A DNA stretch of 64,000 nt from Candidatus Bathyarchaeota archaeon (GCA_963706285.1 CAVPLU010000004.1:64001-128000); one strand, 5' to 3'. Shown: positions 1,851 through 59,062, numbered from the stretch's first letter. Notes: a model not told the origin generated them from the letters alone. Translations and numbers: made by a program.

Positions 1851-1859
1851 GTCGTCGAT

Positions 1860-15760: not shown

Positions 15761-15766
15761 TCGTGA

Positions 15767-16286: not shown

Positions 16287-16970
16287 TTGACTGACTTCTC
16301 TGAGAAGCGGAGAAGAGTTGTCGAGGCGCTTAGATCCGAAGGCGTCCTACACGACCACCGCGTCATTCAGGCAATGCTGAAAGTTCCGCGTGAATTGTTT
16401 CTGCGAACTGAGGAAATGCAGTATGCGTATGTTGATTCTCCACTCCCTATTGGTCATGGACAGACAACGAGTGCTCTGCACATGACCGCGATGTTCTGCG
16501 AGTATGCCGAAATGAAACCTGGCCAGAAGGTGCTAGAGGTTGGTACGGGTTGCGGATACATGAGTTGCGTCTACGCAGAGGTCGTCGCTCCCAGCGATCG
16601 ACCTGAACGGGAGTGGGGTCATGTGTGGTCGGTGGAGATAATCAAGGAGCTGGCTGAATCCGCGGAACTCAACGTTGAGAAAGCAGGATACTCGAAGAGA
16701 GTCAATGTGCTCCACGGAGACGCATCCGTCGGGCTCCCAGAACATGGTCCCTATGATGTGATAATCGTAACGAGCGCGGCGCCTGACGTTCCATCTCCAC
16801 TGACGGAGCAACTTAGCCCTGGCGGTGTCCTATTGATACCGCTTGGAACACCACACTTCTTCCAAGAACTCTACCGTGTGAGAAAGAACGATGATGGAAA
16901 GGTGACACGCGAGAATATGGGTGGGGTTGCGTTTGTGCCCATGAGAGGACGCCACGGATGGCATGAATAA
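16287..16970 (+). CDS. pcm: Protein-L-isoaspartate O-methyltransferase
   Basis: VPRELF, AYVDSPLPIGHGQT, LEVGTGCGY, PYDVIIVT, VAFVPM. Confidence 0.95.
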   Translation: MTDFSEKRRRVVEALRSEGVLHDHRVIQAMLKVPRELFLRTEEMQYAYVDSPLPIGHGQTTSALHMTAMFCEYAEMKPGQKVLEVGTGCGYMSCVYAEVVAPSDRPEREWGHVWSVEIIKELAESAELNVEKAGYSKRVNVLHGDASVGLPEHGPYDVIIVTSAAPDVPSPLTEQLSPGGVLLIPLGTPHFFQELYRVRKNDDGKVTRENMGGVAFVPMRGRHGWHE

Positions 16971-17081
16971 GACCCAGCGAAGTCATCTGGACCGAGAGCC
17001 ACGCGAGATGAGACTTCTTATCTAGTCCGAGAGATGCGATCTCGCCCAGTGGAAAGGGAGCCTAGCGGGTTCGTCAGAAAG

Positions 17082-17162
17082 CGCGGGAGGGGGGATTCGA
17101 ACCCCCGAACTGAAGCTGACTTCGCCTTCGGCTCGTCAGGGCTTACGCCATAGGCTCCTGAA
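17082..17162 (-). pseudogene. 3' half of tRNA-Leu(CAG), from the anticodon loop to the acceptor stem, with a 30-nt insert; att-like remnant
   Basis: Minus strand TTCAGGA-GCCTA-TGGCGTAAGCC-[30 nt]-TTC-GGGGGTTCGAATCCCCC-CTCCCGC-G; no D arm or 5' acceptor strand upstream. Confidence 0.8.
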
Positions 17163-17334
17163 CTATTATCATTCGACATACAATAATTCCCTCAACATCC
17201 AAACATTGTACGTTCAAACCTATAGGGAATGAGGGGTCCATTTTATTTTGGTTCTCAAGATTCGATCATGGTGTCATGATGAGAGTCCCGCGATTCTTGC
17301 AGTCTTGCTTGGAACATATCTGCAATAGGGTTTG

Positions 17335-17739
17335 TCATTTAGAAGTACTGACTTCTGCCTGAGGCCACTTCCATGCGTACCAGACAATGAATGAAGTGGT
17401 CAGGATTTCTATGGCTCCAAAGAATAGGTAGTAAGTGGTTGTCGTCCCACTCGATATCGGAAGGATAAACTGTATTGACAAAGTAACTAAAGCATACGCT
17501 GTGCCTGCGATGATGTTTGTCCAGCGATTGGCCCTGTATTTCAATACCCGGTAGAGGATAACCATCGCCATCGGTATCTCCATGAGGACTGACACTCCAA
17601 GCAGGGTGGCTGGAGTGAATTGAATAGACCCAAGTTTGCCGTTGTAGATTATGTCAAACAATGCGAGAACGTCCGCATAGACAAAATTGAACATTAGAAA
17701 GACCCACAGCGTCGAGAGTCTTGCTTTCCTGTCTTCCAT
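17335..17739 (-). CDS. DUF6326-like membrane protein
   Basis: LSTLWVFLMFNFVYADV...EIPMAMVIL...NRWTNIIAG...IVWYAWKW; GAGGTGA upstream of ATG 17739. Confidence 0.8.
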   Translation of the reverse strand: MEDRKARLSTLWVFLMFNFVYADVLALFDIIYNGKLGSIQFTPATLLGVSVLMEIPMAMVILYRVLKYRANRWTNIIAGTAYALVTLSIQFILPISSGTTTTYYLFFGAIEILTTSFIVWYAWKWPQAEVSTSK

Positions 17740-18117
17740 AGCGATCACCTCTCTGTTTGCGGCTCTTGAGCCTTGCAGGATATTTGAAAGTTCGGGTTCA
17801 CGGTTCCAGCAACCCGTCTGAGGATGATGCGCTTCGAAAGATGAGGTAAACATAACCTATTCTCACTCACTTACGTTTGGGTCTCGCCACGTTTGGACCC
17901 GTAACTTTCCACTAGAATAACATATGACTAGAACAACGAGGCGAGTTGTGTCTAATGGTTCTCGGAGATTGAGCAAGTCCTGACCAGCTCTACCGTGCTG
18001 GCGGTTCCGAGGGGGCAAAACCACAAATCAAAGCGGTAACATGATTACATGATGGTTCGCTTTGCCAAAAAGCGCTAGCAAGCTAGACGGCGGGTAAGAA
18101 TCCCCATTTCTCGAGCC

Positions 18118-18600
18118 GTGTTGAATGCAAGGAACCCAATAGTCCATGTCGACAAGTCTTGGGACCACGTGAATAGGCGCTCAAAAGACCGAAGAATAGT
18201 GTACTTCATTTTAGGCGACAAGGACTTCCTGTATGACAAGGGACCGATCTACTCCAAGGTCAACGGTGGCCGATCAAGGATATTGTACATTGGGATGACT
18301 GAAAAGAAAGATGCGAACGTCCTTCTTACTCTGAGGAGAAAAGCAACAGAACTTTGGCATTGGGGTCTCAAGCACTTGGAAGTCAGATACATATCACCAC
18401 AGGGACGACAAAACGTCTCTGCTGTGGACGAACTCGAGACAGTCTGTCTCTATGAGTTTGCCCAGATGTTTGGTCGTCTTCCTCTTGGGAACGTGAAGCC
18501 GAAGTGGAACAGATATTCCGATAAGGAACTGGAAAAGGTCTTCCGTCACTATCCACCGTTTGAAACAATCAGACCTTTGCTGCGGGAGGCAGGAGACTAG
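18118..18600 (+). CDS. GIY-YIG-like nuclease (start uncertain)
   Basis: IVYFI...RILYIGMT, conserved Glu in ELETVCL and Asn in GRLPLGN. Confidence 0.65.
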   Translation: MLNARNPIVHVDKSWDHVNRRSKDRRIVYFILGDKDFLYDKGPIYSKVNGGRSRILYIGMTEKKDANVLLTLRRKATELWHWGLKHLEVRYISPQGRQNVSAVDELETVCLYEFAQMFGRLPLGNVKPKWNRYSDKELEKVFRHYPPFETIRPLLREAGD

Positions 18601-18699
18601 AGCTACTTGTGCTCTCTATTTGTCAGGGATACCGACAAGCTCGACAGATCTTTCGATACGATGTTCATTATCGTCTGAGTTTTCAATGTTGGCCTGATA

Positions 18700-19137
18700 T
18701 TGTCCACGAGTGTGAGGCTTGGTGAGACTTCACTTGCAGCGAACTCGGCAGCGATAACCCAGCAAATGATTCCAATTATGTTGCTAGTAATCGTCTGGTG
18801 GGCAGCTGGATTTTACGACAAGCTTGGACTCAAGATACTGGGATGGTTCATCTTATTCATACTCGTTTTCTATTCAAGCGTGTTTCTTCTGATAATGCTT
18901 GGTGTGGACAGATACTTCGGATTCAATGTAATGTATCTTGTCTATTTGTATGTGGTATTGCCTCTTCCATCATCAGCGGTCGCGTGGAAAATAAAGAACC
19001 GTTATTGCTCATTGCTTAACCGTCGCTTAACTGGTCGGGAGAAGCTCGTAGGTGTGAGTCTGATTATCCTGTTCGCGGCGTACTGGTTCATTGTTCCATG
19101 GGATCTGACTTCAATTGGCATACCATGGTGGCTGTAA
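18700..19137 (+). CDS. Hypothetical four-TM membrane protein
   Basis: Four hydrophobic segments; no recognisable family. Confidence 0.6.
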   Translation: MSTSVRLGETSLAANSAAITQQMIPIMLLVIVWWAAGFYDKLGLKILGWFILFILVFYSSVFLLIMLGVDRYFGFNVMYLVYLYVVLPLPSSAVAWKIKNRYCSLLNRRLTGREKLVGVSLIILFAAYWFIVPWDLTSIGIPWWL

Positions 19138-33751: not shown

Positions 33752-34744
33752 CTACTTCCGTGATGAGAGCTGCTTGAATGCCTCCGTCAGGGCTGGCAAG
33801 ATCTTGTAAAGATCCCCAACGATCCCGTAGTCGGCATACTCGAAGATAGGTGCCTTCGAGTCCGTGTTCACGCACACCACAACACGGGCGTTCTGAATGC
33901 CTGTAATGTGTTGTATCTGGCCCGAGATGCCGCAGGCGACATAGAGTTTCGGTGCAACCTTCTGGCCGGATAATCCTACGTATTGATCGATCGGGAGCCA
34001 CTTTAGGTCCTCAGCGATCGGTCTAGAGCAGCCAACAACCCCGTTGATGGTCTTCGCAAGTTCCTCGACAATCGGTATATCTTCCTTTTTCTTGAGTCCA
34101 CGTCCAAATGAGACGATCGCCTCAGCTTCCGTGACTCTCACTCCTGCGAACTGTTTCGTCTTCCGTCCAAGAACCTTCACAGGAGATTCAGCTAACTTTG
34201 GCTGGACTTGTACGGTCTCTCCGGTTCTATTCGGATCTTTGGCTAGTGGTTGGAAGACTCCTTTCGGGAGAGTGAAGATTTGGGGCCTCGGTCGGATGAT
34301 CAGCGTTTCGGTTATGTTTCCTCCGAGTACGAGACGGTCAACAACCACGCATTTCTTCTCTGAATCAATGTCTAGCTTCGAACATTCTGTGCAACATCCA
34401 GTCTTCAGGCGTTCCGCAAGCCGTGCGGCAAGTTCCAGTCCGTTTCTGGTGGCTCCGATGAGTATGACATCTGGTCGGTAGGTTTGAGTTATCTGAGTCA
34501 GCACGTCTGAATACGGATGAACTTGGTAACTCCCCAGCGACGGATCCTGAACAGTGTACACTTTGTCCGCGCCGAAGGCCACGAAGTCTTTGCTGTTATC
34601 TGAAACGTTGTCGCCTATGGCGACTGCGGCTAGGTGAGTTCCAAGCTTTCCCGCAAGCTCGCGTCCCTTTGAAAGTAGTTCTCGAGTGATTGCAGGGTTC
34701 TCTGAGAACACGCAGACGCCGTCGTGTTTCTGAGTGGTAGTCAT
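33752..34744 (-). CDS. etfA: Electron transfer flavoprotein alpha subunit
   Basis: SFGRG, GCSRPI, VGLSGQKVAPKLYVACGISGQIQH, NTDSKAPIF..ADYG. Confidence 0.96.
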   Translation of the reverse strand: MTTTQKHDGVCVFSENPAITRELLSKGRELAGKLGTHLAAVAIGDNVSDNSKDFVAFGADKVYTVQDPSLGSYQVHPYSDVLTQITQTYRPDVILIGATRNGLELAARLAERLKTGCCTECSKLDIDSEKKCVVVDRLVLGGNITETLIIRPRPQIFTLPKGVFQPLAKDPNRTGETVQVQPKLAESPVKVLGRKTKQFAGVRVTEAEAIVSFGRGLKKKEDIPIVEELAKTINGVVGCSRPIAEDLKWLPIDQYVGLSGQKVAPKLYVACGISGQIQHITGIQNARVVVCVNTDSKAPIFEYADYGIVGDLYKILPALTEAFKQLSSRK

Positions 34745-35535
34745 GCGACCTTCACCACTCCTTCACTGATCAGGGTGGACGCAAGCTTCTCCGCGGCTTC
34801 CTTAGGTTCACCCTGTATCAGGATCCTCTTCCTTTCGCCCGTAGCGACAGCTGATTTCAACGCTTCAGTTAGCGAGCCGTCCCGACCTAGGTCGCTGGGC
34901 TTCAATCCTATGTCCGCGACTGTCCAGGCGGTCATAGGTTTCTTTGAGGCGGCCATTATGGCCATGAGTGTGGGGAGTCTTGGTTCGTTAATCTCTCGCG
35001 AAACCGTGATGAAGACTGGAAGTTTTGATTCGACCGTCTCGTAGGAGTCCTCAAGGTTTCTTTCCGCGGTGACTTTTCCATCTTGAATGGTGATCTTGGC
35101 TGCGTAGGTTATCTGGGGAAGGTTCAGGATCTCGGCTGTTCGCGGTCCGACTTGGAATGAGTATTGATCCTCAGATGTTTCGCCGCATAGTATGATGTCG
35201 AATTGTCCGATCTTTCGTATTCCTGCTGCAAGAGCGGCTGCTGTCGCATGAGCGTCTGAGTTCTCGAATTCGGGACCAGTTAACATGTAGCCTTCGTCTG
35301 CTCCCATGGCTATGGCCTCGCGAAGTGCCTCCTTCGCTTGAGCTGGTCCCATTGTGAGTACGGTGATCTTGCCACCGAGTTTCTCTTTCAGTCTGACTGC
35401 TTCCTCAATTGCGTTTTTGTCGGATTCGCTGATGACGCGGGCGACACCTTCTGTCACGAGTTTCTTGTTGGTTCGGTCGATTCGCAGGTCTTGTGTGTAG
35501 AAGACCTGTTTGGCAAGCACAATTATGTTCGGCAT
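34741..35535 (-). CDS. etfB: Electron transfer flavoprotein beta subunit
   Basis: KQV, DKNAIEEA, AIAMGAD, QVGP, INEPRLP. Confidence 0.96.
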   Translation of the reverse strand: MPNIIVLAKQVFYTQDLRIDRTNKKLVTEGVARVISESDKNAIEEAVRLKEKLGGKITVLTMGPAQAKEALREAIAMGADEGYMLTGPEFENSDAHATAAALAAGIRKIGQFDIILCGETSEDQYSFQVGPRTAEILNLPQITYAAKITIQDGKVTAERNLEDSYETVESKLPVFITVSREINEPRLPTLMAIMAASKKPMTAWTVADIGLKPSDLGRDGSLTEALKSAVATGERKRILIQGEPKEAAEKLASTLISEGVVKVA

Positions 35536-35592
35536 GATGATCCTCCTACAGCGCGTTTCGCAAGTATGGCTGGCTAGGGTTTATGATATTGA

Positions 35593-37507
35593 CTATTCGA
35601 GCGCGTCTGCGACTAGCTCGGCGATGTCTCGGATAGGCATCTTCTCGGATGTGCCAAGTACTTTCGAGGCGTCTTCGAACATTGAGATGCAGTATGGGCA
35701 GGCTGCTGCTAGGATCTCAGGGCCGAGTTTTTCGGCTTCCTCGATTCTTATCACGCTACACTTCTTCTCGGCTTCTACGGTGTACCAGGTGTTTCCTCCG
35801 CCTCCGCCGCAGCAGAAGCTCTTAACTCGTGATCGTGGAAGCTCGACAAGTTTCCCGTTCGAGAGTGTTCGGATGATGGCTCGTGGGGATTCGTACTCGT
35901 CATTGTATCTGCCTAAGTAGCATGGGTCATGGTATGTGATGGTCCGGTCGGTTTCTTTCTTGAGTTTGAGTTTTCCGTCGCGCAGCAGTTGCGCTATCAG
36001 CTGTGTGTGGTGTATGACTTGGAACTTTGCGCCGAATCTCGGGTACTCGTTCTTGAAAGTGTTGTAGCAGTGGGGGCACTGGGTCACGATCTTCTTGACA
36101 CCGCGCTTATTCATCAGTTCGATCAGTTCCATTGCTGATTGCTGGAATCTTCCTTCTTCACCGATTCGGCGTGCAACTTCGCAGTTGCATTTTTCTTCGT
36201 TTCCTAGTATTCCGAAACTGATCTGTGCCGTCTTCATGATCTTGACTAGTGCTCGAGAGACCATTTGGTTTCGCGTGTCGTAGGAGCCAGCGCAACCAAC
36301 CCAGTACAGGAACTCTTGGTTAGGTTCATCGCCGTACAGTTTTACGTCGAGTCCTTCTGCCCATTTTGCTCTGTCTGAACTGCCGAGCCCGTATGTGTTG
36401 CCAACCGTTGTCAGAAAGGTGAGGAGATCTCGCTTCTTCTTGTCGACTTTGCCTTCTGCCATCAGGTGTCGGCGCATGTCACAAATTGCGTTGACATGGT
36501 GAATCAGGACCGGGCATTCCTGAACGCAGGCGCGGCAGGTGGTACATGCCCAGAGTTCCTCTGGATCTACAGTTTGTCCGTGAAGTTGCTTCGCTGCACT
36601 TGGCGATTGAAGTTCAAGGTTCTTGAGTTTCAGTATGACATGCATCGGTGACAGTTTGGTTCCACCTGCTTTTGCGGGGCATGCGTCTGAGCAGCGTTGG
36701 CAGAGTGTACATGCGTCAAAGCTGAGTTTCTGTTGACAGGTGAAGTCATTGATCTCTGATGCGCCGACTTTGACGTCGAAGTTGCCTGACTCCATCATTT
36801 GTTTGAGGTCGAATGGCGTTGTCATCTCGCCCTTCACTGCATTTGGCGTCCAGTAGACGTTCAGTGGCGAGGTAATCAGGTGAATCAGGCGAGAGTTCGG
36901 TATGTATGCGATCAGTGAGAAGACTAATGCTGAGTGAATCAGAAAGAGGCTCGGGTAAAGGTCCACGAGCACTTTAGGTCCCAACTGCGTGAAGAGCGGC
37001 GAGAGTACTTCTCCAACTGGGGAGTCCCAAGCCCAAGTGTTGACTCCCATCATCAGAAATCCGGAGAGTGGCCATCGCAATTATGACGCCGAAGACAAAG
37101 GAGTCTTCCCAGGCGGTCTCAAGCGGAGGCCCGATAGCTCTAAGACGTTTGTATTCGAGAAGAATCAATCCCAAAACGAATAACAGAGCCAGGTAACCTA
37201 CGATCTCTTCCAAGATCGGAAAGAACATTCCTAGGAGAAGCAGGAAACCGATTATCGAGATGAGCGCGTGCATTGTTCCGTTGTATCTTTTGTTAAGAAC
37301 CTTAGCCTGCGCTATTCCGAAGTATAGGAGTCTCTTCAACCGTGAGAGTGCCGTTCCGGAGATCTGATCTGCTTTTCCTTGCTTCCACGCACGCACGTGT
37401 CTTCTGATCCCGATAATGAAGAGGAAAGCGCTGATGGCGCCGAATATCCACCAAGCGATCACGAAAAAGATGGGAAGATACTGGAAGACGTCTCTGATGA
37501 TCTCCAT
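35593..37507 (-). CDS. Membrane-bound Fe-S oxidoreductase (FadF/EMO type: heme-b membrane domain, two 4Fe-4S motifs, two CCG domains); indel near 37070
   Basis: TM region with His residues (MHAL, LIHS, LIHL); CTLCQRC...CP; CTTCRAC...CP; VGC, CPHC, HDPCYLGR, CCGGGG, ACPYC. Confidence 0.88.
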
Positions 37508-37509
37508 TC

Positions 37510-38874
37510 TTAGGCCTCCTGTTTGCTGGTCTTTCTTGCGTGGCCGCGAAGTATCGCATAGAACGGAATCGCGACTACTAGTGGTGCTACAATAACGATT
37601 GATCCTAGGACCAGGTTCATTGTTTCAATTGGAATGGAGAGGCTTGCTGAGAGGATCTCGTTCAATGCGTAGAGTGTCAGTGTAGAGAGAAGTCCGAGAG
37701 ACCACACTCCGATAGCCGTCTTGATTGGTCTTCTAAGTGCACGAACTTCGTTTCCACGGTCGATCACGGGCATTAGAAGAAGCACGAGGAACATCGCGGC
37801 TGCGATCAGAATGCCAACAACCTTTGCGCTCAGCAGGTCAACGCCGAAGACTGTGGCGGGCGGGACAAAATGAAGGAGATCGTAGGCCCAACCGACCCAT
37901 TTGAGAAGTCCATACGCCCAGAGGAAATACCATTCAGGAGCTATGAACTGTGGCGTAAGGAATCTGTTTGCAGGATCACCCGGCGCTTGGACGGCATACG
38001 CCCCTAAGAGCAACACAATACCGAGCGTGACAAGTGAGAGGATCAGGACAGGAGTAATTTGGTGTGGGATGAAGGGGGCGAAGAGCGGTCCTTCCTGCTT
38101 CCCAGCTTCGGTTTGACCTGTCGGAGGTTTCCATGCTTCCTCAGGCTCCGAGACCCCCTGAAGCAGCACTAGGACAATGTGTGCGCCCACTAAGACGATC
38201 GCGACAACGGGAAGGAGGCTGACGTGATAGAAGTACATCCTCGTCAACGTAATGGCGGAAAGACCGGTTCCGCCCAGAAGCACCCGCGCAATCAAGTCAC
38301 CCAGAAAAGGAATCGACCTCATAATCTGCACGCTAATCGTCGCAGCCCAATAGCCGAGCTGATCCCAAGGAAGAAGGTACCCTGAAAACGAGTAAGCAAG
38401 TGCCAGCCCTAGCGAAAGGACGCCTAACATCCATGATATTTCACGTCCGATTCTGTAGGGATTGCGGAAGAACGCCCAGAACGCGTGAATCACAAGCGCG
38501 GCAACGAGCAGGTTCGCGCCCCATTGATGTGTTCCTCTAATTAGCGCTCCGAGTGGAACGTACCTCATTATGTTCTGAACGCTCTGGTACGCTTGAGTTG
38601 GGGTTCCTGGATCGCCCACGGCGGAGGGCACATAGTTGAAAGCAAGAAGTAGACCGGTGACACCCTGCAGAATGGCAAGAAAAGCCACTATCGAACCCGC
38701 ATAGTAGAACGGGTAACCAAACCAGAAGATCTTGGATCTATTCTGTCGTGTCAGAGAACTCGGCAGAGCGAAGTTGACACTTCTCTGAGCCTCCGCAATC
38801 AAAGGAGAGATGTTGAAACGTCTATCAAACCACTCGTAAATCCTCTTCCTCCGCGATGACATAGCCAAACTCAT
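37510..38874 (-). CDS. petB: Cytochrome b of a Rieske/cytochrome b complex (unsplit)
   Basis: RGTHQWGA...IH, SGYLLPWDQLGYWA, FYH-x14-H, PEWYF Qo motif. Confidence 0.94.
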   Translation of the reverse strand: MSLAMSSRRKRIYEWFDRRFNISPLIAEAQRSVNFALPSSLTRQNRSKIFWFGYPFYYAGSIVAFLAILQGVTGLLLAFNYVPSAVGDPGTPTQAYQSVQNIMRYVPLGALIRGTHQWGANLLVAALVIHAFWAFFRNPYRIGREISWMLGVLSLGLALAYSFSGYLLPWDQLGYWAATISVQIMRSIPFLGDLIARVLLGGTGLSAITLTRMYFYHVSLLPVVAIVLVGAHIVLVLLQGVSEPEEAWKPPTGQTEAGKQEGPLFAPFIPHQITPVLILSLVTLGIVLLLGAYAVQAPGDPANRFLTPQFIAPEWYFLWAYGLLKWVGWAYDLLHFVPPATVFGVDLLSAKVVGILIAAAMFLVLLLMPVIDRGNEVRALRRPIKTAIGVWSLGLLSTLTLYALNEILSASLSIPIETMNLVLGSIVIVAPLVVAIPFYAILRGHARKTSKQEA

Positions 38875-39509
38875 CCACAGTAGTCGTAGATTCCGAGATC
38901 CGTGACAACCCCGAGGACTTTGCCGTCTTTGATTTCGATCGGTATCATCGGCGCAGCTCTCGGCGGCGGACCTGCAATCACCTTTGCTCCGGAATATTCA
39001 ATGCCATTGAGCATGATGTCCTTGACGATGTTGTACGGATCGAAGGCGCCATCATGGCATCTACAGAACAACACATCCTCCTTTGGTCGATCCAGATGCC
39101 ATGTGAATATGCAACACAGGTGAGTGCAGGCAGCTGCGAATGCAATCAATCCGTTAGTGGCCGTTGCACCTTGAAGTCTATTTTCGTCAACGCGTATGAC
39201 GACGGCTGGAATCATTCCACGCCAAAGAACACTGGCACCTTTTCCAACTTGATCGAAATCCTCCAGCTTGACTTCAGTTCCTGCCTTGCTTGAGTACCAT
39301 GTGTCCTTTTCCGGTCCGTACCTGAAGATGTTGTCAACTTCTCCCAGTGGTCCGCCAGCTCCGGCGCGCGGGAGAAGCGATGTAAGAAGCGACAGGAATG
39401 AGACGACGGTTCCTGCAATTCCCAGCGAGATTATGGTCTGGACGAACTCGCGTCTGTTGATTCGAAGTCTGATCTTCTTCTCCGATCCGTCGGCTGGTTT
39501 CTCAGTCAT
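38871..39509 (-). CDS. Rieske 2Fe-2S protein of a Rieske/cytochrome b complex, with Tat signal
   Basis: NRREFV Tat motif plus TM helix; CTHLCC and CRCHDGAF; GPPPR. Confidence 0.93.
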   Translation of the reverse strand: MTEKPADGSEKKIRLRINRREFVQTIISLGIAGTVVSFLSLLTSLLPRAGAGGPLGEVDNIFRYGPEKDTWYSSKAGTEVKLEDFDQVGKGASVLWRGMIPAVVIRVDENRLQGATATNGLIAFAAACTHLCCIFTWHLDRPKEDVLFCRCHDGAFDPYNIVKDIMLNGIEYSGAKVIAGPPPRAAPMIPIEIKDGKVLGVVTDLGIYDYCG

Positions 39510-39990
39510 GCTCCTTGTCTCCGCTGACTTCTTTCTTCGACAAGTTCGATAAGTTCGCGGCAACGAGTTCTAGTCGCGGTTTTCTCGTGAAAGCTTCGCT
39601 CATGAACGTGCTCCTGTATGCCGCCAAAATTATTGCCGCAAGGAATGCTGCCACTGCGAGCATAGTCCCGAGTGCAATTGATCCCATCCCTTGAAGCGCA
39701 CTCAAGACTATCAAGGCGTCCAATAGGAGCTCCAGGATCACCATCGTTACGATTCCAATGTATGCGGCATCCGATGACGAGAGAGGATTTCCAAGCCTAA
39801 CAATGTCTTTTGGTCCAAGTGGGCTCAATTGTGGCATTGTTTTGTTTCTATCCGATCTGAGAACGTAGTACATGATGCCCATCAAGAGGAAGACAAAGAG
39901 GAAGGCGACGAGTCCAGCCTCGAATGAAGGTATCTCCGTGATCAAAGCTCGCTGGCTGAAAGTTCCGAGAACTCCGCTAACAAGCTCCAT
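39502..39990 (-). CDS. Hypothetical membrane protein, first gene of the Rieske/cytochrome b operon
   Basis: About three TM helices; stop overlaps the Rieske start. Confidence 0.75.
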   Translation of the reverse strand: MELVSGVLGTFSQRALITEIPSFEAGLVAFLFVFLLMGIMYYVLRSDRNKTMPQLSPLGPKDIVRLGNPLSSSDAAYIGIVTMVILELLLDALIVLSALQGMGSIALGTMLAVAAFLAAIILAAYRSTFMSEAFTRKPRLELVAANLSNLSKKEVSGDKEHD

Positions 39991-40225
39991 CGGAGGATCG
40001 ATCGGTGAGTAGCCTTTATCACTCTATATTAGTCCTCCTTCCAAATTGTGTACTGCTCATTGTTCCTGAAGATCCTCGGCACCCTTTGACCATACTTCTC
40101 ATAGTGAATCCAGTTCTTTCAACACGATTGAGAGAAGATCTCGAATCGGCGCGTCCCAATATGGCAATCAACTAGGCATGAAGCGGCAAGTACGCGAGAC
40201 GCCATCTGCAATGTAGTGCATTGAG

Positions 40226-40336
40226 ATGGCCTCGCCTCTAATCAGATGCGGCTACTGTGGACAGTGGATTCCGAGATTCACTCCATTCTGCCCTTGCTGC
40301 CAGAAGAAGTTCCTCTTCAAGGGATTGGGGCTCTAG
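40226..40336 (+). CDS. 36-aa zinc-finger microprotein (below the ORF-track cutoff)
   Basis: MASPLIRCGYCGQWIPRFTPFCPCCQKKFLFKGLGL: CxxC-x10-CxxC. Confidence 0.5.
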   Translation: MASPLIRCGYCGQWIPRFTPFCPCCQKKFLFKGLGL

Positions 40337-40503
40337 GCTCACCCACCAACTGCCCACTCCCGTTCTGATCTCACGCCTATTAGTGGTCTTGCTGGACCAA
40401 CCAGCCAGTCCACACAAAGCCCAATACCGACGAAAGTGTCCTTGCCTGAAAGTCTAGGACACTGACGCAACCTAACAATACAGAATCGTGAGTGGAGCAG
40501 AGA

Positions 40504-40728
40504 ATGCTAGGCGCGTTAGAGATCATCGTGATCCTAATCGTCGTGGGAGGACTTCTGCTGCTTCAAATCAAGACACGAACGGGCCCCTTAATTCCCTACA
40601 TGGCTGTCGTGGTTCTGCTTCTGTTACTTATGGCCGCCATGGAAATGATTCGTTCTCTCACTGGCGTTGTGTTAGTGCTTGCATTACTCTGCGGGCTTCT
40701 CTTGTACAGAGTCGTGCGGACAAGATAG
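40504..40728 (+). CDS. Small three-TM membrane protein
   Basis: Very hydrophobic ORF with GGAG upstream of the ATG. Confidence 0.55.
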   Translation: MLGALEIIVILIVVGGLLLLQIKTRTGPLIPYMAVVVLLLLLMAAMEMIRSLTGVVLVLALLCGLLLYRVVRTR

Positions 40729-40777
40729 CCTCTTACCCGACGAGTCGCGAGCTCTGCGATCGAGGAGTAGTTGGAAT

Positions 40778-41668
40778 TCAGAGGTAGGCTCCGATCAGGA
40801 ATCCTGCGGCCAACAGTGCGATTGTAGAAAGAATGACTATCACGTTCAGTCCTAGTGCTGGCACAAGTTCGGGAATTCGATCATAGTTCTTGAGCACGGT
40901 AGTTATTGCCTTGTATGCGATTGGCGTGGCGATTAAGGAGACTAGTACAGTGAACGGTGATGCGCCCAAGACGACTGCCAAGAGAATTGAGAGATACGTT
41001 GCGACAACAAACGTGACGTAGATCAAGGCCGATATTCTTCTCCCAACTAGTATCACTATATGTCTTCTTCCAGCTGCTTTGTCAGCTTCAGCGTCGGGGA
41101 ACTCGTTCAAGAACAAGAGCAACCCAACAAGGATACTGACCGGTACAAAGACCGCGATCCCTGTCGCGTCCACGACTCTCGATTGAACAACGTATGCTCC
41201 CAAAGCCATGAATCCGAATCCGGTTCCAGCCACAATTTCGCTGAGCGCGTGCACTCTCGAAAGCACAGGCGTGTAGAAGAATATCGCAACTAGTCCGTAG
41301 AGGAGAATGGGTAACAAGGTATAGATTCCGCGAAATAGAAAGTAGGCGCCTACTACGGAGGCACCAGCGAGACACAGGATGCCAACGGTAAAGGCAGCGG
41401 ATGGTTTCATCGTGCCCTTTACGAGGATGTCAACGCCTCCGCTGAAAGGCGTCTTGATCGTTTGGGCGTCGATCTTGGATCTGTAGTCGAAATAGTTGTT
41501 GAACACGTTTGCAGCCATGTGAGTCAGCAAAGCTCCAATGAACACGATAAGAGCGTCGAACGGGTTGAAGACTCCATGCGCGTAGAATGCTGCTGAAATT
41601 CCCGCCGCGACAATCACGACTGTCAACAAGAGGAAGTTCGCCCTAGTTATCAACACTAGATTGTTCAA
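40778..41668 (-). CDS. menA: UbiA-family prenyltransferase, MenA-like
   Basis: NVFNNYFDY...D, TPFSGG, NEFPD..AD..AGR; multi-TM. Confidence 0.8.
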   Translation of the reverse strand: MNNLVLITRANFLLLTVVIVAAGISAAFYAHGVFNPFDALIVFIGALLTHMAANVFNNYFDYRSKIDAQTIKTPFSGGVDILVKGTMKPSAAFTVGILCLAGASVVGAYFLFRGIYTLLPILLYGLVAIFFYTPVLSRVHALSEIVAGTGFGFMALGAYVVQSRVVDATGIAVFVPVSILVGLLLFLNEFPDAEADKAAGRRHIVILVGRRISALIYVTFVVATYLSILLAVVLGASPFTVLVSLIATPIAYKAITTVLKNYDRIPELVPALGLNVIVILSTIALLAAGFLIGAYL

Positions 41669-41725: not shown

Positions 41726-43215
41726 CTATCCCTTTGTTACTCCGATTGGTGTGAGACGGCATACTTTGGTTGCGATGCCTACTTGGTGGCTGACTTCCAC
41801 TACGCGGTCAACATCTTTGTAGGCTCCTGGCGCTTCCTCAGTCACTGTTCCCATTTCGGCTGCTCGAATCATGATGCCCTTGTCTGCGAGTCCCTTCTTG
41901 ACTTCTTGTGGTCCCCATCGTCTCTTTGCGGCTGCTCTGCTCATCATGCGGCCTGCGCCGTGTGCGGTGGAGCCGAAGCTTAGTTCCATACTCTTCGCGG
42001 TTCCGACGAGTAGCCATGAGCTGGTTCCCATGCTGCCGGGGATGAGGACCGGTTGTCCGATCTCTCTGTACTCTGCTGGGATGTCGGAATGTCCTGGAGG
42101 AAACGCTCGCGTTGCGCCTTTACGGTGGACTATCACCTTTCGTTGATGTCCTTCTTGGTCAACCACGTGGTTCTCGATTTTCGCGACATTGTGGCATACA
42201 TCGTAGATCAGGTGCATGTCAAGCTGATCTGCGGTTTTTCCAAATGTCTTCTCGAAAGCTTCTCTCGTCCAGTGCGTGATCATTTGCCTGTTTACCCAAG
42301 CGAAATTGCATGCTGCACGCCATCGCTGGGAGGTAATCCTCTCCCTCTGGACTCTTCGAGGGAGCGCATGCGAGCTGTCGATCTGGCAAGTTGATGTGAT
42401 ACTTGCTCACGGCTCGTTCCATGACTCGAAGATAGTCACTGCATACTTGATGCCCGTATCCTCTGCTACCAGTGTGAACTAGGACTAGTATCTGTCCAGG
42501 GCGTTCTATTCCTAGATACTTCGCGACGCGTTCATCGAAGATCTTGTCCACTCTCTCTATCTCGAGAAAGTGGTTTCCGCTCCCGAGACTGCCGAGTTGG
42601 CGATGTCCCCTGCTCTTTGCGGTTGAGGAGACCTTGGAGGGGTCGGCCGATTCCATGCATCCGTTTTCTTCGCAATGGTTCTTGTCTTCAGACCATCCGT
42701 AGCCGTGATCAACTGCCCACTCGACTCCATCCGCCACCACCTTGTCAATCTCCCCCTGCGTAACACGGATTTTGCCGAGGCTCCCAAGACCTGATGGAAC
42801 ATTGTCAAACAATGCATCAAGCAGCTTCGAGAGGGCTGGTTTCATATCGTTCTCGTTGAGGTTCGTGCGAATGAGTCTGACGCCGCAATTTATGTCGTAG
42901 CCGACTCCCCCGGGGCTGATGACTCCTTCATCGTAGTCCATTGCCGCGACGCCGCCGATTGGAAAGCCATAGCCTTCGTGGCCGTCCGGCATCGTTATTG
43001 ACCATTTATGGATGCCGGGTAGAGTGGCGACGTTTGCACATTGTTCAAGCGTTGCATCTAGATCTCATTTTCTCGATGAGTGTCTTGTCAGCGTAGATTC
43101 TTCCGGCAACTTTCATGCCGGGTCTGAACGATTGGGGAATCTCCCACATGTACTCGTCGAGTTGCTTTAACTGAACACGTTCTGATGATCGCCCATAGGC
43201 GCCTTCGTCTGGCAA
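41726..43215 (-). CDS. rtcB: tRNA-splicing ligase RtcB (indels near 43062 and 42312)
   Basis: MPDGHEGYGFPIGG, GYDINCG, GSGNHFLE, HTGSRG, HN, HRKGATRA, PGSMGT, HGAGR, EEAPGAYK across three frames. Confidence 0.96.
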
Positions 43216-49850: not shown

Positions 49851-50523
49851 CTAGCAGCAGGATGGGGACAACGTAATCTGAGTGACAATCTGACCCCCCT
49901 GGAGATCGTACTTGAGAACTTCAGCCGGATCTGTGGTCCCTGGTGGACCGTGTCCGTGTATCGTCGGCGGTCCCATGCCCACAACGTAGATGTCCCCTGT
50001 AGCTTGGTCATACTCGAGCATGACTCGTGGAACAGGGAAAGGAGCAGGTCCTCCAATTACCCTGCCATTGTGAACGAAATCAAACTGCGAATTGTGGCAG
50101 CCACAGAAGCCTTCAGGCGGATTGGAGGCTGCGGCACCGGGCGGCAAGAAGTTGAAGACGCAGCCTTGGTGTTGGCATAGGCTGCTGAAGGCAACGATAT
50201 CGCCATCCGGCCCGACTCCATTGTCAGCCTTCACGCCGAGCTTGACGAGGATGTTGGAGGTACCAACCATAGGATAGTCAAACGAGAGCGCTTTCAGCGG
50301 CTGCAGCGACTTTGCATTAGTCGCTATTAGTCTGGGCCATGCGAGTGACATAGTGGTAGAAGTAGCTCCAGTAGTACCCGTGCTCGTGGTGGAGGAAGGA
50401 GCCTCAGGACTCCCGGAAAAGATTCTGAAAGTGCCTGCTACCACAGCTGCGATTGCCTAGGATTCCAGCGCCAATTACTATCTTGAGGGTTCTTCTTCTA
50501 CTATTCTGTTCAGTAGATTTCAT
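49851..50523 (-). CDS. AioB-like (arsenite oxidase small subunit family) Rieske protein with Tat signal (indel near 50457)
   Basis: MKSTEQNSRRRTLKIV; FDYP...LVKLG...GVGPDGDIVAFS.LCQHQGC...CGCHNSQFD...GPAP. Confidence 0.85.
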
Positions 50524-54896: not shown

Positions 54897-56020
54897 TTAT
54901 CGACCTGTTAGGTTGTCTTTCTCATTATGTAGGATAGCGAGCCTCATCAAGGCTTGCTCGTACACTGCGATTGCGGCTAGATAGTCTTCGATGACGATCT
55001 CTTCTTGGTCTGTGTGATCTAGTCTAGAATCTCCTGGCCCATAAGCGATCATTGGAATCCGTATCTTCGATGCAAGAAGATTCATGTCTGAAGTTCCAGT
55101 CTTCTTAAGGAAAACTGGATTCTTACTTCTGACCTTTCTTATGGCCCATGAGAATGATTGTGCAAGCGTCGAGTCGGCATTCATCAGACATGCGCCAATA
55201 TGATCTACCATTTTCAATTTGACTGAAACGCCTGAGTTGTTTTTCCTATAGGATTTGATGGTTCCTCTGACGTTGTTCAATACGTCCGTAGACTTGAGTT
55301 CCGGCGGGATACGCACGTCTAGCGTGAGCGTGCATTCAGATGGAATCACGTTAACTGAAGTTCCGCCTCCAATGCTGGTCAGGCTGCCTGTTACCGAGTG
55401 GAAGCGAGATTCGCTGTTGCTGAAATCCACAAATCCCTTCTTCAGTAGGCTCCAGAGTTCCATCCCCTTCTCGATGGCATTATCTGACATCCACGGGGCC
55501 GCTGAATGCCCTGCCTTTGTAATGCATTTTAGCGTGAGACGAATGAAGCCCTTGTATCCAATTACGATATTCTCGGTGTTGCTGGGTTCTCCAAAGACAG
55601 CGTAATCCAGATCAAGCGAATCTGATTTGATGAAATTCTTTATGCCCGTGCTGTGGCTCTCTTCACTCACAACTCCCACCAGCAAAATTCTGCCGGGGAA
55701 TCTATCCTTCAGTCTTGAGGCTGCCACGATCATGGCCGCAAGAGGCGATTTAGCGTCAACTGCGCCTCTTCCCCGGATCTTCGTTCTCTCCAGCTTGATT
55801 TCCAGATTTCCTGGAACCGTGTCCATGTGTCCGCACAGATAGGACTCTCGGGTGACCCGTGGCCAGATTCGGCTATCACGTTTCCAACATCGTCTCTGCG
55901 TGAGTGAAAGCCAAGCTTCTTCGTCTCGGTCAAGAGAAAATTGGACAACTCGCTTTCTTGACCGGACGGGCTGTATAGCTCAAGCATGTTCTTCAGAAGG
56001 TTTACCGGGTAATCGTCCAC
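54897..56020 (-). CDS. lysK: [LysW]-ornithine/lysine hydrolase, M20 family (indels near 55840-55855)
   Basis: YSPSGQE...DDVGNVI, then CGHMDTVPG, GRGAVDAKSPL, GEPS, GTSDMN, YGPGDSRLDHT. Confidence 0.92.
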
Positions 56021-57200
56021 TCTCTTTCTCTCCGATGATTTCATCCAACACCTCGGCGGTTCGGTCTATGTGCGCCCGTGTGATAACAAGCGGCGGCAAG
56101 AAACGTAGCACGTTCCTACCCGCATCTAGCATCAGCACTCCTCTCTCCAATGATTCAAGAATCACTTCTCGGACATCAAAACGCATCTCCGCACCGATCA
56201 TGAGGCCAAGTCCTCTGACCTCTCTTATGATCGGATGATTCTCCCTCAAATGATTCAGTTTCGAGGCAAGGTACTCTCCCTGGACACGTGCCTTTTCGGG
56301 AAGATTCTCTTGCTCAAGAACGCCAATCGTTGCTGCTGCGGCGGCGCATGCAATGGGGTTGCCGCCATAGGTAGTTGAGTGCTCTCCCACCTTCAGGCTT
56401 GACATAATCTCATTCTTGGAAAGTGTCAGGCCTATTGGAATGCCGCCGGCTACGCCTTTGGCTAAGCAGGTGATATCCGGAACTATTCCAGAATGCTGAA
56501 AGGCAAAGAGTTTTCCTGTTCTTCCAAATCCTGTTTGGATCTCATCGACGATTAACAAGATTCCTTTCTCGTTACAGAGTTCCCGCAACTGTTTGAGGAA
56601 ATCGTTCGGGGGAAACCTGACTCCGCCCTCTCCCTGGATCGGTTCAGTTATCACGGCCGCAGTATCCGTGCCGATATTTTCTTTCAGCTTCTCGATGTTG
56701 CCGAAAGGAACATGTTTCATCTGGGGAACTAGTGGCATGAACGGGTCTCTGTACTTCTTATCCCATGTTACTGATAGGGCGCCGAATGTTTTTCCGTGAT
56801 AGGCGCCCATCATTGCGATGATCTCTTTCTTTCCAGTGTATTTTCTAGCGAGTTTGAGAGCGCACTCAATCGCTTCAGCGCCGCTATTCGACAGAAACAC
56901 TTTGTCTAAACCGTTGGGAGCTATGTTCGCGATTCTCTGCAGCAGCTCCGATCTGGAGTCGTTGTACATGAACCCATGGCATGAGGTGAGCTTCTCGCTC
57001 TGGTTCCTTATCGCCTCAACTACTCTTGGGTGGCAGTATCCGACTATGCATGAACCATAGCTTCCCGCACAATCGATGTACTCCTTGCCATCCTCATCCC
57101 AAAGTAGGTCTGCGCTTCCCTTCACAATCACGACTGGGCGTTTGGCGTATACGTTCGCCATGATCCTCTGTTCGGTCGCGATGATCTGGTCTCTATCCAT
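55980..57200 (-). CDS. lysJ: [LysW]-semialdehyde aminotransferase (class III)
   Basis: NSGAEAIE, EPIQGEGG, DEIQTGFGRTG, AKG, TYGGNP. Confidence 0.93.
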   Translation of the reverse strand: MDRDQIIATEQRIMANVYAKRPVVIVKGSADLLWDEDGKEYIDCAGSYGSCIVGYCHPRVVEAIRNQSEKLTSCHGFMYNDSRSELLQRIANIAPNGLDKVFLSNSGAEAIECALKLARKYTGKKEIIAMMGAYHGKTFGALSVTWDKKYRDPFMPLVPQMKHVPFGNIEKLKENIGTDTAAVITEPIQGEGGVRFPPNDFLKQLRELCNEKGILLIVDEIQTGFGRTGKLFAFQHSGIVPDITCLAKGVAGGIPIGLTLSKNEIMSSLKVGEHSTTYGGNPIACAAAAATIGVLEQENLPEKARVQGEYLASKLNHLRENHPIIREVRGLGLMIGAEMRFDVREVILESLERGVLMLDAGRNVLRFLPPLVITRAHIDRTAEVLDEIIGEKESGRLPGKPSEEHA

Positions 57201-58002
57201 GAACAATCACTGTCCCCGTTTTGCCGCTCAACGATTTTGAGATGGGGTCTTCCTGTAGTCCTGACATCACGACGGCTTGGCCAACACCCATTTTGACGGC
57301 TTCGACTGCCGCGTGAATCTTGGTTATCATTCCTTTTCCTATTCCTGGTAGAGTTGACTCTGCTTCTTGCAGCGTCAGTCTTGGAACCAGGCTGCCATTC
57401 AGGACAAGCCCTTCCACATCGGTTAGCAAGACGAGTCTCTCAGCTCTCAAGCTTCCCGCTATGTGAGCTGCCATGCGGTCTCCGTCAACGTTCAGCTCCT
57501 CGAATTCTTCGCTGATGACAATTGGGGCAACAACAGGAGTGTATCCATTCTCAAGCAGAAGGTTGATGAGCCTGGGGTCTACACTCTCAATCTTGCCGGT
57601 ATAGCTGTCATCAACCAGTCTTTTTCTGCCGGTTTCGTTCACTGCAATGATCTGTTTCTTTCTGCTTGCTCTTACAGACGCTCCATCGATTCCAGTGATG
57701 CCGACAGCTTGTACTCCTTGCGCCAAGAAGGATGATACGATTCGTTTGTTTATCTTCCCCGCCATCACCATCGTGAAGATTTCCATTGTGTCCTTGTCAG
57801 TGTAGCGGCTCTTGAAGCCATCAGGGGAAACTAGAAACTGTTGTTCCTTTCCCATCTTTGAGGCGATCTGTGTGACTTTGTTTCCGCCGCCGTGAACTAG
57901 TACTATCTTGGTTTGGGAGAGGCTTCGTTTGATATCCGCGATGAAGGATTCTGTCATTCCTTCGTCGAGCACGGTACCTCCTACCTTCACAACTGTGATC
58001 AT
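57193..58002 (-). CDS. lysZ: [LysW]-glutamate/aminoadipate kinase
   Basis: VKVGG, VHGGG, SPDGFKSRYTD, NVDGDR, GMITK. Confidence 0.94.
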   Translation of the reverse strand: MITVVKVGGTVLDEGMTESFIADIKRSLSQTKIVLVHGGGNKVTQIASKMGKEQQFLVSPDGFKSRYTDKDTMEIFTMVMAGKINKRIVSSFLAQGVQAVGITGIDGASVRASRKKQIIAVNETGRKRLVDDSYTGKIESVDPRLINLLLENGYTPVVAPIVISEEFEELNVDGDRMAAHIAGSLRAERLVLLTDVEGLVLNGSLVPRLTLQEAESTLPGIGKGMITKIHAAVEAVKMGVGQAVVMSGLQEDPISKSLSGKTGTVIVHG

Positions 58003-58008
58003 GGTTTT

Positions 58009-59061
58009 TCACGCTGGGTGAAGTGGAGGTGTCTTCAGTCCAGTCTTCTCATCCAATCCGTACATGATGTTCAGGCATTGAACGGCTTGTCCGGCTGCTC
58101 CTTTGACTAGATTGTCGATGGCTGAGAAGATGACTAGTCGGTTCACGTGGTCGTCTAGTTCGAAGCCGATATCGCAGAAATTGGATCCCACGACCACTTT
58201 GGGGTCGGGCAGTCTGTAGAGCCCTTCGCTATCTTTGACAAATCGGATGAATGGTTCATTCTTGTAGAACGAGCGGTAACTCTTCCAGATATCAAGATCG
58301 CTGGACTTCTGGGTCAGGAACACGTGAATGGTTGCTAGTATTCCGCGGACGGAGTTGACGGCGTGTGGTGAGAATGAAATCTTCACAGGCTGGTTGGTGA
58401 GTTGGTTCAGTTCTTGTTCAATTTCTGCGATGTGTCTATGGCCTATGGTTTTGTATGGTCTCACGCCGCCGAATCGTTCAGCGTGATGTGACGCGATCGA
58501 AGGTTCCGACCCTGACCCTGAGGATCCCACCTTCAAGTCAACGACTATTCTTTCCTTCTCAATCATGTTGTCCTTCACGGGAGGTGCAAGGGCTAAGATG
58601 GCTGATGTCGCCATGCATCCTGGCACGCCAATTAGGTCAGCTTTTCTAATTTCCTCCCTGTGCAGCTCCGGCAATCCGTAGGTGGCCTTACTCAGAAGTT
58701 GAGCGTTGGTGTGTTCCCAACCATACCAGTGCGGGTAGTCCTGCGGATTTTTCAGACGGAAATCAGCGCTCATGTCTATGAGCTTCAGATTGGATTTCAA
58801 GAGTTCCGGGATGAGATCTTTGGATGCGCCGTGTGGCGTTGCTGTGAATACGACCTCGCACGTTTTTGCGATGTAGTCTACATCCAGTGGAGAGAACTTG
58901 AGCGTGGTATAGCCTCTCAGGTTTGGGTGTGCTTTGTGTACGTACTTTCCCGCGTGTTGTCTTGATACTATTGTCGTCAGGTCGACGTCAGGGTGGCCTA
59001 GGAGTATGCGTATGAGTTCACCGCCAATGTATCCTGACCCGCCGACTACTCCGACTTTCAA
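58009..59061 (-). CDS. lysY: [LysW]-glutamyl/aminoadipyl-phosphate reductase (ArgC-like)
   Basis: GGSGYIG, SADFRL, YGLPE, PGC, HRH..EI, DNLVKGAAGQA. Confidence 0.94.
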   Translation of the reverse strand: MKVGVVGGSGYIGGELIRILLGHPDVDLTTIVSRQHAGKYVHKAHPNLRGYTTLKFSPLDVDYIAKTCEVVFTATPHGASKDLIPELLKSNLKLIDMSADFRLKNPQDYPHWYGWEHTNAQLLSKATYGLPELHREEIRKADLIGVPGCMATSAILALAPPVKDNMIEKERIVVDLKVGSSGSGSEPSIASHHAERFGGVRPYKTIGHRHIAEIEQELNQLTNQPVKISFSPHAVNSVRGILATIHVFLTQKSSDLDIWKSYRSFYKNEPFIRFVKDSEGLYRLPDPKVVVGSNFCDIGFELDDHVNRLVIFSAIDNLVKGAAGQAVQCLNIMYGLDEKTGLKTPPLHPA

Positions 59062-59062
59062 T

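Follow-up and report, generated by a model that had tools for sequence, protein, structure and literature searches.

Do six adjoining genes that place a Rieske/cytochrome b unit directly ahead of an electron transfer flavoprotein (ETF) and its quinone oxidoreductase form one operon, and could they work as one respiratory branch? This question is raised by a 64,000-nucleotide stretch of DNA from a Candidatus Bathyarchaeota archaeon (GCA_963706285.1 CAVPLU010000004.1:64001-128000; hereafter the window, whose numbering is used throughout), in which the genes for a small membrane protein, a Rieske protein, a cytochrome b, an EtfD/EMO-type protein, EtfB and EtfA follow one another on the minus strand. 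Bathyarchaeia belong to the most abundant archaeal groups in anoxic sediments and wetlands, they are thought to be fermentative, and the class is usually called anaerobic. The window lies on contig C4 of an archaeal genome bin of 2.13 Mb in 21 contigs (89% complete, 7.5% contaminated). We searched 41 related genomes, 10 in the genus of the window and 31 others; respiratory inventories given below out of five refer to five genus genomes that are 89-95% complete.

The reading that we prefer, to which we give a probability of about one half, is that the six-gene string is a real operon of one Bathyarchaeia genus and would encode a single respiratory branch, running from ETF through EtfD to quinone and on to the Rieske/cytochrome b unit, with an acceptor outside the cluster. 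In the first module, flavoprotein dehydrogenases of the acyl-CoA type would reduce EtfBA, and EtfD would pass the electrons to the membrane quinone. The second module would comprise the small membrane subunit, a Rieske protein exported by twin-arginine translocation (Tat) and a divergent, one-piece b6-like cytochrome b, with no cytochrome c; it would re-oxidise the quinol by a Q-cycle, and the electron from the Rieske protein would go to an acceptor for which the cluster has no gene. The component families are all known, and what is new is their union in one operon, a combination that searches of open-access papers and preprints on Rieske/cytochrome b with EtfD/HdrD or on Bathyarchaeia did not find described.

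The six genes and their cofactor ligands

The string opens with a gene for a membrane protein of 162 amino acids (39502..39990), called as an open reading frame (ORF) with a weak match to DUF7318. It continues with the Rieske [2Fe-2S] protein of 212 amino acids, whose ATG lies at 39509 (38871..39509; ORF, Pfam and alignment), and the cytochrome b of 454 amino acids (37510..38874), which carries the Cytochrome_B N and C domains of Pfam. The NarI-like/Fe-S/CCG protein of EtfD/EMO type comes next, with a broken frame (35593..37507), followed by a 57-nt spacer (35536..35592), by etfB (34741..35535; 264 amino acids, one stretch of Pfam ETF at 7e-50) and by etfA (33752..34744; 330 amino acids, Pfam ETF and ETF_alpha). 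An earlier reading of this DNA, made from the sequence alone, had proposed six tightly packed minus-strand genes with these identities, and the ORF calls and Pfam bear it out. We also recovered the junctions it had listed: in gene order, the first two pairs overlap by 8 and 4 nt, the third is 2 nt apart, the 57-nt gap ahead of etfB comes next, and etfB and etfA overlap by 4 nt. In the window, cytochrome b ends 2 nt before EtfD begins, and the ends of tblastn matches place the two genes close together in the loci of nine relatives too. The cluster is present in all 10 genus genomes, and the six-gene order is complete in seven of nine relatives' loci, the remaining two ending at contig ends and holding what fits. 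Members of the protein clusters of both cytochrome b and EtfD are labelled Candidatus Bathyarchaeia archaeon by their source.

A break that the sequence-only reading did not mention affects the EtfD gene, which one extra C near 37069-37070 splits into overlapping ORFs (36974-37507 and 35593-37080). The gene is in frame and encodes about 637 amino acids in all nine genus relatives, and the extra C is missing from every covering contig of three wetland metagenomes (three contigs in X1, one in X2 and two in X3). Other genes of the same genome are also broken, namely COX1, SdhA, a cytochrome b6 and an EtfA. The RtcB tRNA ligase gene of the window (41726-42992, minus strand) is likewise split between frames, with ORFs at 41726-42283 and 42219-42992 that overlap, and has a single frame in relatives. 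This pattern points to assembly indels, and not to gene decay, as the probable origin of the breaks in EtfD, RtcB, COX1, SdhA, cytochrome b6 and EtfA.

Pfam recognises in the CCG protein of the window two CCG stretches, Fer4 and a NarI tail; Nitrate_red_gam stays below its cut-off in the broken ORF and is listed for the intact homologues. When we compared the intact orthologue of the closest relative (P0121, genome G001) with EtfD of Mycobacterium smegmatis (9ojn_A), a match with an E value of 4.7e-88 was obtained. The ligands of clusters D1-D4, together with His583, the haem ligand His241 and Arg306, have been described for the mycobacterial protein (PMC13083937). All 17 Cys of D1-D4, the linear [3Fe-4S] site D1 included, and His583 are identical residues in P0121, where the aligned positions are C405/C440/C477/C480; C529/C565/C566/C603/C606 with H479; C276/C321/C324/C327; and C266/C269/C272/C331. 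His241 aligns with H209 and Arg306 with R271, and nearly all of the ligand positions are invariant in 33 homologues. H80 is also invariant; the stretch around His78 of 9OJN falls outside the aligned part shown. Only H80/H209 is clearly kept as a haem ligand pair, and for H191, the third invariant His, no partner is evident. This conservation of ligands in the alignment with 9ojn_A indicates that the protein is an ETF:quinone oxidoreductase of EtfD/EMO type, with that activity predicted, and agrees with its earlier assignment as a FadF/EMO-type protein. There is functional precedent for electron transfer from ETF through EtfD/EMO to (methyl)menaquinone (PMC13083937, PMC8805022), and in Syntrophus the EMO family is a cytoplasm-facing di-haem/Fe-S enzyme that works in both directions (PMC8805022). 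As a separate observation, a partial EtfD (P0164), with 82% identity to that of Bathyarchaeia, carries the source label [Eubacterium] cellulosolvens, probably from a contaminated bacterial assembly.

Among solved chains, EtfB is nearest to that of the bifurcating ETF 6fah_B (181 bits, against 112 bits for human ETF). Its 'zipper' hexapeptide reads DQYSFQ, which matches neither the bifurcating DGDTAQ nor the canonical D-D-D-S-N-Q; DGDTAQ is the signature of bifurcating ETFs, and its Thr is 100% conserved in 216 of them (PMC8958531). This ETF may be of the bifurcating type (group 2), which overall similarity favours, but it does not match the signature. Candidate electron donors are frequent, with four to six acyl-CoA dehydrogenase matches per genome in all five genus genomes. 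The genome contains two further ETF systems, each beside a FixC-type ETF:quinone oxidoreductase gene, so the ETF of the window is the EtfD-linked one. These two systems lie on contig C12 at about 15700-18950 (locus L121, 3718-6942) and on contig C3 at about 116800-121500 (locus L120), and in one of them EtfB and EtfA are fused into a single protein of 637 amino acids.

In the cytochrome b, H116/H130 and H217/H232 are invariant in alignments of 14 and of 31 sequences, with 14 residues inside the second pair, and the Qo motif P313-E314-W315-Y316 is invariant in the 31-sequence alignment. The protein is a single chain that combines b6-like and subunit-IV-like portions, and none of its 454 residues is a Cys, so that it lacks the haem ci Cys ligand of b6f and of Firmicute b6c. 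All four features claimed for it earlier (four His, PEWY, the 14-residue spacing and the missing haem ci Cys) were recovered. The Rieske protein keeps box I (CTHLCC), box II (CRCHDGAF) and the RR motif for Tat export in eight of eight genus relatives, with one V for A, and is 69-97% identical over all 212 residues in the seven relatives' loci that hold the whole gene. Box II reads as previously claimed, with neither the Ser nor the Tyr. The disulfide Cys are present, and two extra conserved Cys lie in box I and at the C-terminus. Its Pfam score is marginal, at 19.1 bits by hmmscan (cut-off 20.3) and 20.6 bits when the genome was searched; the nearest solved structures are the Thermus Rieske proteins 3fou and 1nyk, with E values of about 1e-10. 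From these motifs, the protein is predicted to be exported by Tat and, given the missing Ser and Tyr, to have a low potential, well below +150 mV. A free-standing Rieske protein of 197 amino acids is encoded elsewhere in the window (49851-50444, minus strand); it is nearest to arsenite-oxidase small subunits and SoxL2, scores 73 bits, below the cut-off, with NCBIfam TIGR02694, and has no adjoining partner gene.

The membrane protein of 162 amino acids has three hydrophobic helices by eye, no Cys and a sole His in its C-terminal tail. It is kept in all seven genus loci that extend that far, scores 24 bits with Pfam DUF7318 (cut-off 27) and has no match in NCBIfam, and its look-alikes in the Atlas are all at or below 0.84. 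No ORF of at least 80 amino acids in the span of the window contains a CxxCH motif; in the whole genome, 31 such ORFs contain a single CxxCH and none contains two or more, with no multihaem or obvious c-type cytochrome among them. Pfam domains of cytochrome c1, cytochrome f or di-haem c are also missing from the cluster. The motif scan and Pfam agree with the claim that the cluster has no CxxCH cytochrome or cupredoxin gene.

The cytochrome b belongs to a narrow group of sequences. Its orthologues are 78-98% identical in the 10 genus genomes, and the best match in the other 31 relatives is 33%. Against 5.8 billion proteins, 113 of the 120 matches listed were at least 68% identical; two partial proteins at 46-47% came next, and those beyond were at most 38%. 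In GTDB species genomes, the best matches outside the clade are at most 40%. A quick tree of the N-terminal domain (184 columns, midpoint root) joined the genus clade to the two partial proteins of 46-47% (Shimodaira-Hasegawa-like approximate likelihood ratio test, SH-aLRT, 97) and next to an Archaeoglobus bin (SH-aLRT 91), far from the other cytochrome b paralogues of the family. We also looked for fusions of subunit IV with HdrD by searching residues 255-454 among longer proteins; none was found, which is weak evidence.

Origin of the arrangement and its counterpart in Chloroflexota

In the sister genus, EtfD-etfB-etfA occurs in four of four loci, and the fetched flanks of these four loci hold no Rieske or cytochrome b gene. 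In a quick maximum-likelihood tree, the EtfD proteins of the genus form a clade (SH-aLRT 99) that is sister to the other Bathyarchaeia EtfDs (SH-aLRT 100). The trio standing alone in the sister genus and the EtfD tree argue that EtfD-etfBA is the older part, and that the three genes of the Rieske/cytochrome b unit were placed ahead of it later. The gene order is conserved across the genus but not outside it, where the sister genus lacks the Rieske/cytochrome b half.

The two parts of EtfD differ in how far they have diverged. Residues 1-225, the membrane domain, are 29% identical to the sister group, as against 62% for the soluble part. The membrane domain of the genus is 24-29% identical to all other EtfD groups, which are 31-37% identical among themselves. 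A full HMMER scan of 1.84 billion representatives with this domain gave 14 matches at E<=1e-10, and the best of them, besides a fragment of 104 amino acids, is 38% identical. A domain swap was considered as the origin of this unusual membrane domain and was rejected in favour of divergence in place, because no closer donor was found among the 1.84 billion representatives. The contrast between both parts and the lack of a closer source indicate that the membrane part changed quickly in the lineage that gained a cytochrome b neighbour.

A similar pairing occurs in another phylum. Among the best 80 outside cytochrome b loci in GTDB genomes, four have a tight cytochrome b6-subunit IV-Rieske-EtfD-like operon, all in Chloroflexota, and the same type of operon is found on six of 80 metagenome contigs (the Anaerolineae-type loci are L044, L047, L054, L068, L138, L139, L141, L146, L147 and L205). 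The EtfD-family gene comes directly after the Rieske/cytochrome b unit, with slight overlaps or gaps of 1 nt in three of four loci checked with Pfam, and no c-type cytochrome domain of Pfam was found among the four genes of the operon in four Chloroflexota loci. In two of the four loci, L054 and L068, the operon is succeeded by a gene for an FrhB-like Fe-S protein, and L054 additionally has SdhA/SdhB downstream. In this last locus (455-8030, from a Chloroflexota bin), SdhA/SdhB have no classical membrane anchor, which suggests that the role of anchor for a succinate or fumarate enzyme may fall to its EtfD-like protein.

The EtfD-like proteins and the cytochromes b of Chloroflexota form their own clades, apart from Bathyarchaeia in both trees, and this separation argues that the pairing of Rieske/cytochrome b with EtfD arose independently there. 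In a wider sample, an EtfD homologue was found at E<=1e-120 in 51 of 201 Chloroflexota genomes, a tally that takes in one unpublished genome (G082) not represented among the fetched loci. Eight of the corresponding loci were fetched; etfB-etfA-EtfD is present in five and cytochrome b in none, and the form linked to cytochrome b would thus be a narrow lineage in this phylum. Among the examined loci, only the Bathyarchaeia string names ETF as the cytoplasmic partner. A metagenome contig from a more distant relative (L136, 3-2623), whose cytochrome b is 77% identical, carries etfB immediately ahead of membrane gene-Rieske-cytochrome b but on the other strand; this contig ends within cytochrome b, and its layout is different, with ETF still adjacent.

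One respiratory branch or another arrangement

We compared the upstream and spacer regions across the genus. The sequence GAAGGAGGACTAATATA, in the region upstream of the first gene (39991..40045, minus strand), ends 34 nt before the first ATG and is invariant in seven of seven genus sequences, while its flanks vary; it is BRE/TATA-like (TFB-recognition element and TATA box), and we infer that it is the promoter of the string. In the spacer between EtfD and etfB, TCAATATCATAAAC directly follows the EtfD stop, is near-invariant in nine of nine genus sequences and is different in two sequences of the sister genus. In a metatranscriptome (X20), contigs 90-99% alike were found on all six genes, where carry-over of DNA is possible, and two of them span the etfB/etfA and the Rieske/membrane-gene junctions. 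In this one dataset, RNA thus covers every gene and bridges two junctions but neither of the two key ones, and a common transcript for all six genes is presumed.

The respiratory context was also examined. A Nuo-like complex is present in five of five genus genomes, and molybdopterin enzymes are variably present. On contig C6 of the window genome (50305-56972; locus L116, 4306-10973), we found an oxidase cluster with the order Rieske-cytochrome b-two small ORFs-COX2-COX1 (broken)-COX3-COX4-haem O synthase, which represents a SoxM-like aerobic set and is adjoined by SdhABCD on the other strand. A second cluster, on contig C4 outside the window (156714-162076 of the contig; locus L117, 4714-10076), has the order Rieske-b6-subunit IV-small ORF-SdhC/D-like-small ORF-SdhA-SdhB, and it is kept in six of six loci, five in the genus and one in the sister genus. 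The three Rieske/cytochrome b clusters (with the oxidase, with the SdhABCD-like genes and with EtfD-ETF) imply that the genus possesses a quinone pool and respires in some way.

Several observations weigh against the preferred reading. The neighbourhood holds no gene for an acceptor of the Rieske electron, and a haem-copper oxidase was found above the cut-off in only three of the 10 genus genomes, cytochrome bd in one of five and a cupredoxin in one of five. The window genome itself has both the oxidase cluster and a cupredoxin, the latter as its sole PF00127 match and on another contig, and these could be the partner that accounts for the ETF-linked cluster; however, with an oxidase in so few genus genomes, an oxidase or cupredoxin cannot explain it in general. 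The quinone is a further difficulty: MqnA/D (PF02621) was detected in none of the five genus genomes, and MenD (TIGR00173) was above its cut-off in none, with a best score of 67 against 244 bits. The string is frameshifted at EtfD in the window's own assembly, and none of the X20 contigs was seen to span cytochrome b/EtfD or EtfD/etfB. Moreover, TCAATATCATAAAC may be a separate internal TATA-type promoter for etfBA. This would limit the firm link to membrane gene-Rieske-cytochrome b-EtfD, and etfBA may additionally be transcribed alone. Unrelated neighbours (HAD hydrolase, RtcB, UbiA and cupin) are equally syntenic across the genus, so conservation at the genus level is weak evidence by itself. 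Finally, the strong divergence of the EtfD membrane domain is not predicted by a plain model of separate complexes.

The sequence-only reading had described the module as menaquinone-based. This label is not supported, given the zero counts for MqnA/D and MenD; these two markers (PF02621 and TIGR00173) were the only ones used to probe the pathway. Likewise, a genomic study of Bathyarchaeia found neither a known quinone pathway nor a terminal electron acceptor (PMC11697101). The earlier interpretation held in part, as the gene identities, the conservation in the genus and the cytochrome-c-less cluster stood, whereas the menaquinone basis did not.

The strongest alternative is that both modules form a hard-wired supercomplex, in which EtfD would be the cytoplasmic arm of the Rieske/cytochrome b complex and, through its haem/Fe-S wire, would trade electrons directly with the Rieske cluster or cytochrome b, or would channel quinol to them, with no free pool. 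In variants of this idea, a Q-cycle reversed by the proton motive force (pmf) could lift ETF electrons onto a low-potential quinone, or bifurcation without cycling could send the b-haem electron out via EtfD/ETF. The 2 nt that separate the cytochrome b stop from the EtfD start favour such a contact, as does the diverged EtfD membrane domain, which has no closer donor and fits a new membrane contact. The independent pairing in Chloroflexota and the presence of the cluster in the seven genus genomes with no detected haem-copper oxidase point in the same direction. Nevertheless, with H80/H209 as the one clear haem pair and H191 unpaired, a two-haem wire that spans the membrane is unproven; EMO alone carries out pmf-driven quinone reduction (PMC8805022), and a changed quinone might account just as well for the diverged membrane domain. 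We consider a supercomplex a possible arrangement, though a doubtful one.

It is also conceivable, and in our view unlikely, that there is no functional coupling, and that two independent units came to lie side by side through a single insertion, their tight spacing being due to compaction. The arrangement is limited to one genus among the 41 relatives searched, the flanking genes keep their order equally well, a separate promoter may precede etfB, and respiratory genes cluster anyway in this genome, as illustrated by SdhABCD beside the oxidase cluster. Against this, the 2-nt junction of cytochrome b and EtfD is too short for a promoter, the pairing recurred independently in Chloroflexota, the relative on contig L136 has etfB beside the unit in divergent orientation, and the change in the EtfD membrane domain is specific to the cluster-bearing genus.

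Another proposal is that the Rieske/cytochrome b unit oxidises quinol and passes the electrons through EtfD and ETF to enoyl-CoA, as a form of enoyl-CoA respiration, in which case a fumarate reductase would be the corresponding acceptor for the second Rieske/cytochrome b6 cluster. The haloarchaeal Nar genes, in which Rieske/cytochrome b genes lie beside the acceptor enzyme (PMC4683180), the reversal of EMO in Syntrophus during growth on crotonate (PMC8805022), the genome's own Rieske-cytochrome b-COX2-COX1-COX3-COX4 cluster, the conserved Rieske-b6-subunit IV-SdhC/D-like-SdhA-SdhB cluster and the lack of a detected oxidase in most genus genomes are in its favour. We regard it as highly improbable, since the Rieske cluster lies outside the membrane and the Fe-S chain of EtfD and ETF lie inside, the step from quinol to enoyl-CoA offers about 60-140 mV per electron (our own estimate, with potentials from PMC8805022), which is too little for a Q-cycle plus inward electron transfer, and the sister genus runs the same EtfD-ETF trio with no Rieske partner.

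Regarding the surroundings of the string, a UbiA-family (MenA-like) prenyltransferase gene (40778..41668, minus strand; Pfam UbiA, 100 bits) lies upstream, as had been pointed out. It is 787 nt away, with a plus-strand ORF (40488-40787) in between, and for these reasons it is a syntenic neighbour outside the operon and not one of its members. With the NCBIfam models of 1,4-dihydroxy-2-naphthoate (DHNA) prenyltransferase, the protein scores 100 bits, under cut-offs of at least 239. Farther along the window, a row of genes for lysine/arginine biosynthesis of LysW type (54897-59917, minus strand), with LysX, ArgC, a LysZ-like kinase, LysJ and a LysK-like hydrolase, is ordinary for archaea, and genes of the diaminopimelate pathway are located at 60896-63977.

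Comparison with known systems and implications

The EtfD of the string resembles EtfD of M. smegmatis (9OJN), EMO of Syntrophus aciditrophicus and FadF of Bacillus subtilis in its predicted five-helix NarI-like haem b domain, its two cubane [4Fe-4S] motifs and its two CCG domains, and its gene also adjoins etfB and etfA. Unlike them, it has a strongly diverged membrane domain and a gene that starts 2 nt after cytochrome b. The mycobacterial protein is longer, with 1042 amino acids and a long disordered C-terminal tail that the window-type protein, of 637 amino acids, does not have. The window ETF shares with the quinone-dependent bifurcating EtfABCX/FixABCX systems its association with a membrane-linked quinone reductase, and its EtfB scores higher to bifurcating ETFs; however, according to Pfam, there is no EtfC/FixC or FixX in the window cluster, both FixC-type genes are elsewhere, and DQYSFQ takes the place of DGDTAQ.

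The Rieske/cytochrome b unit has in common with b6-like complexes (b6f and the menaquinol:cytochrome c reductases of Firmicutes and actinobacteria) the four His, PEWY, a Tat-anchored Rieske protein, both boxes and the disulfide Cys. It differs from them in that its cytochrome b is a single chain with no haem ci Cys, no gene for cytochrome c/f or a cupredoxin accompanies it, its Rieske box II lacks Ser and Tyr while extra Cys occur in box I and at the C-terminus, and, beyond its own clade, none of the matches listed exceeds 47% identity.

As for genetic organization, Rieske/cytochrome b genes are also packed with another respiratory enzyme in the SoxM-type clusters of Sulfolobus (PMC4122944) and in haloarchaea, where NarB/NarC accompany nitrate reductase (PMC4683180). 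In those systems the partner takes the Rieske electron on the outer face, whereas the partner in the window faces the cytoplasm and is known as a quinone reductase. The Chloroflexota operon also has an EtfD-family gene directly after a Rieske/cytochrome b unit, but its cytochrome b is split, its gene order is different, no ETF genes follow, and its EtfD-like protein is 36% identical and belongs to a separate clade. In mitochondria, the ETFDH-complex III metabolon ties an ETF:quinone oxidoreductase functionally to complex III (PMC10896730); this system is eukaryotic, its ETF:quinone oxidoreductase is an unrelated enzyme, and the link is a protein interaction and not an operon.

A wider possibility, which we consider rather unlikely and somewhat less probable than the supercomplex, is that Rieske/cytochrome b units in which a haem/Fe-S wire of the EtfD/HdrD type replaces cytochrome c1/f constitute a distinct, undescribed respiratory class with several origins, Anaerolineae and this genus among them, for which ETF is the partner here. 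If this were true, an EtfD-wired complex would link the ETF pool directly to bifurcation at the Qo site or to the pmf-driven reverse of it, and an anaerobe that lacks cytochrome c, and in most cases an oxidase, would run a Q-cycle enzyme to move electrons at the acyl-CoA level on or off a low-potential quinone.

The finding of a Rieske/cytochrome b unit and an ETF set in one string is unusual, and it hints at how presumed fermenters may respire. Given that the ETF-linked cluster is present in every genus genome and the oxidase is not, the locus makes concrete what role a Q-cycle enzyme might have with no high-potential acceptor. For the Rieske/cytochrome b plus EtfD-like operons of other phyla, the Bathyarchaeia string offers ETF as a candidate cytoplasmic partner.

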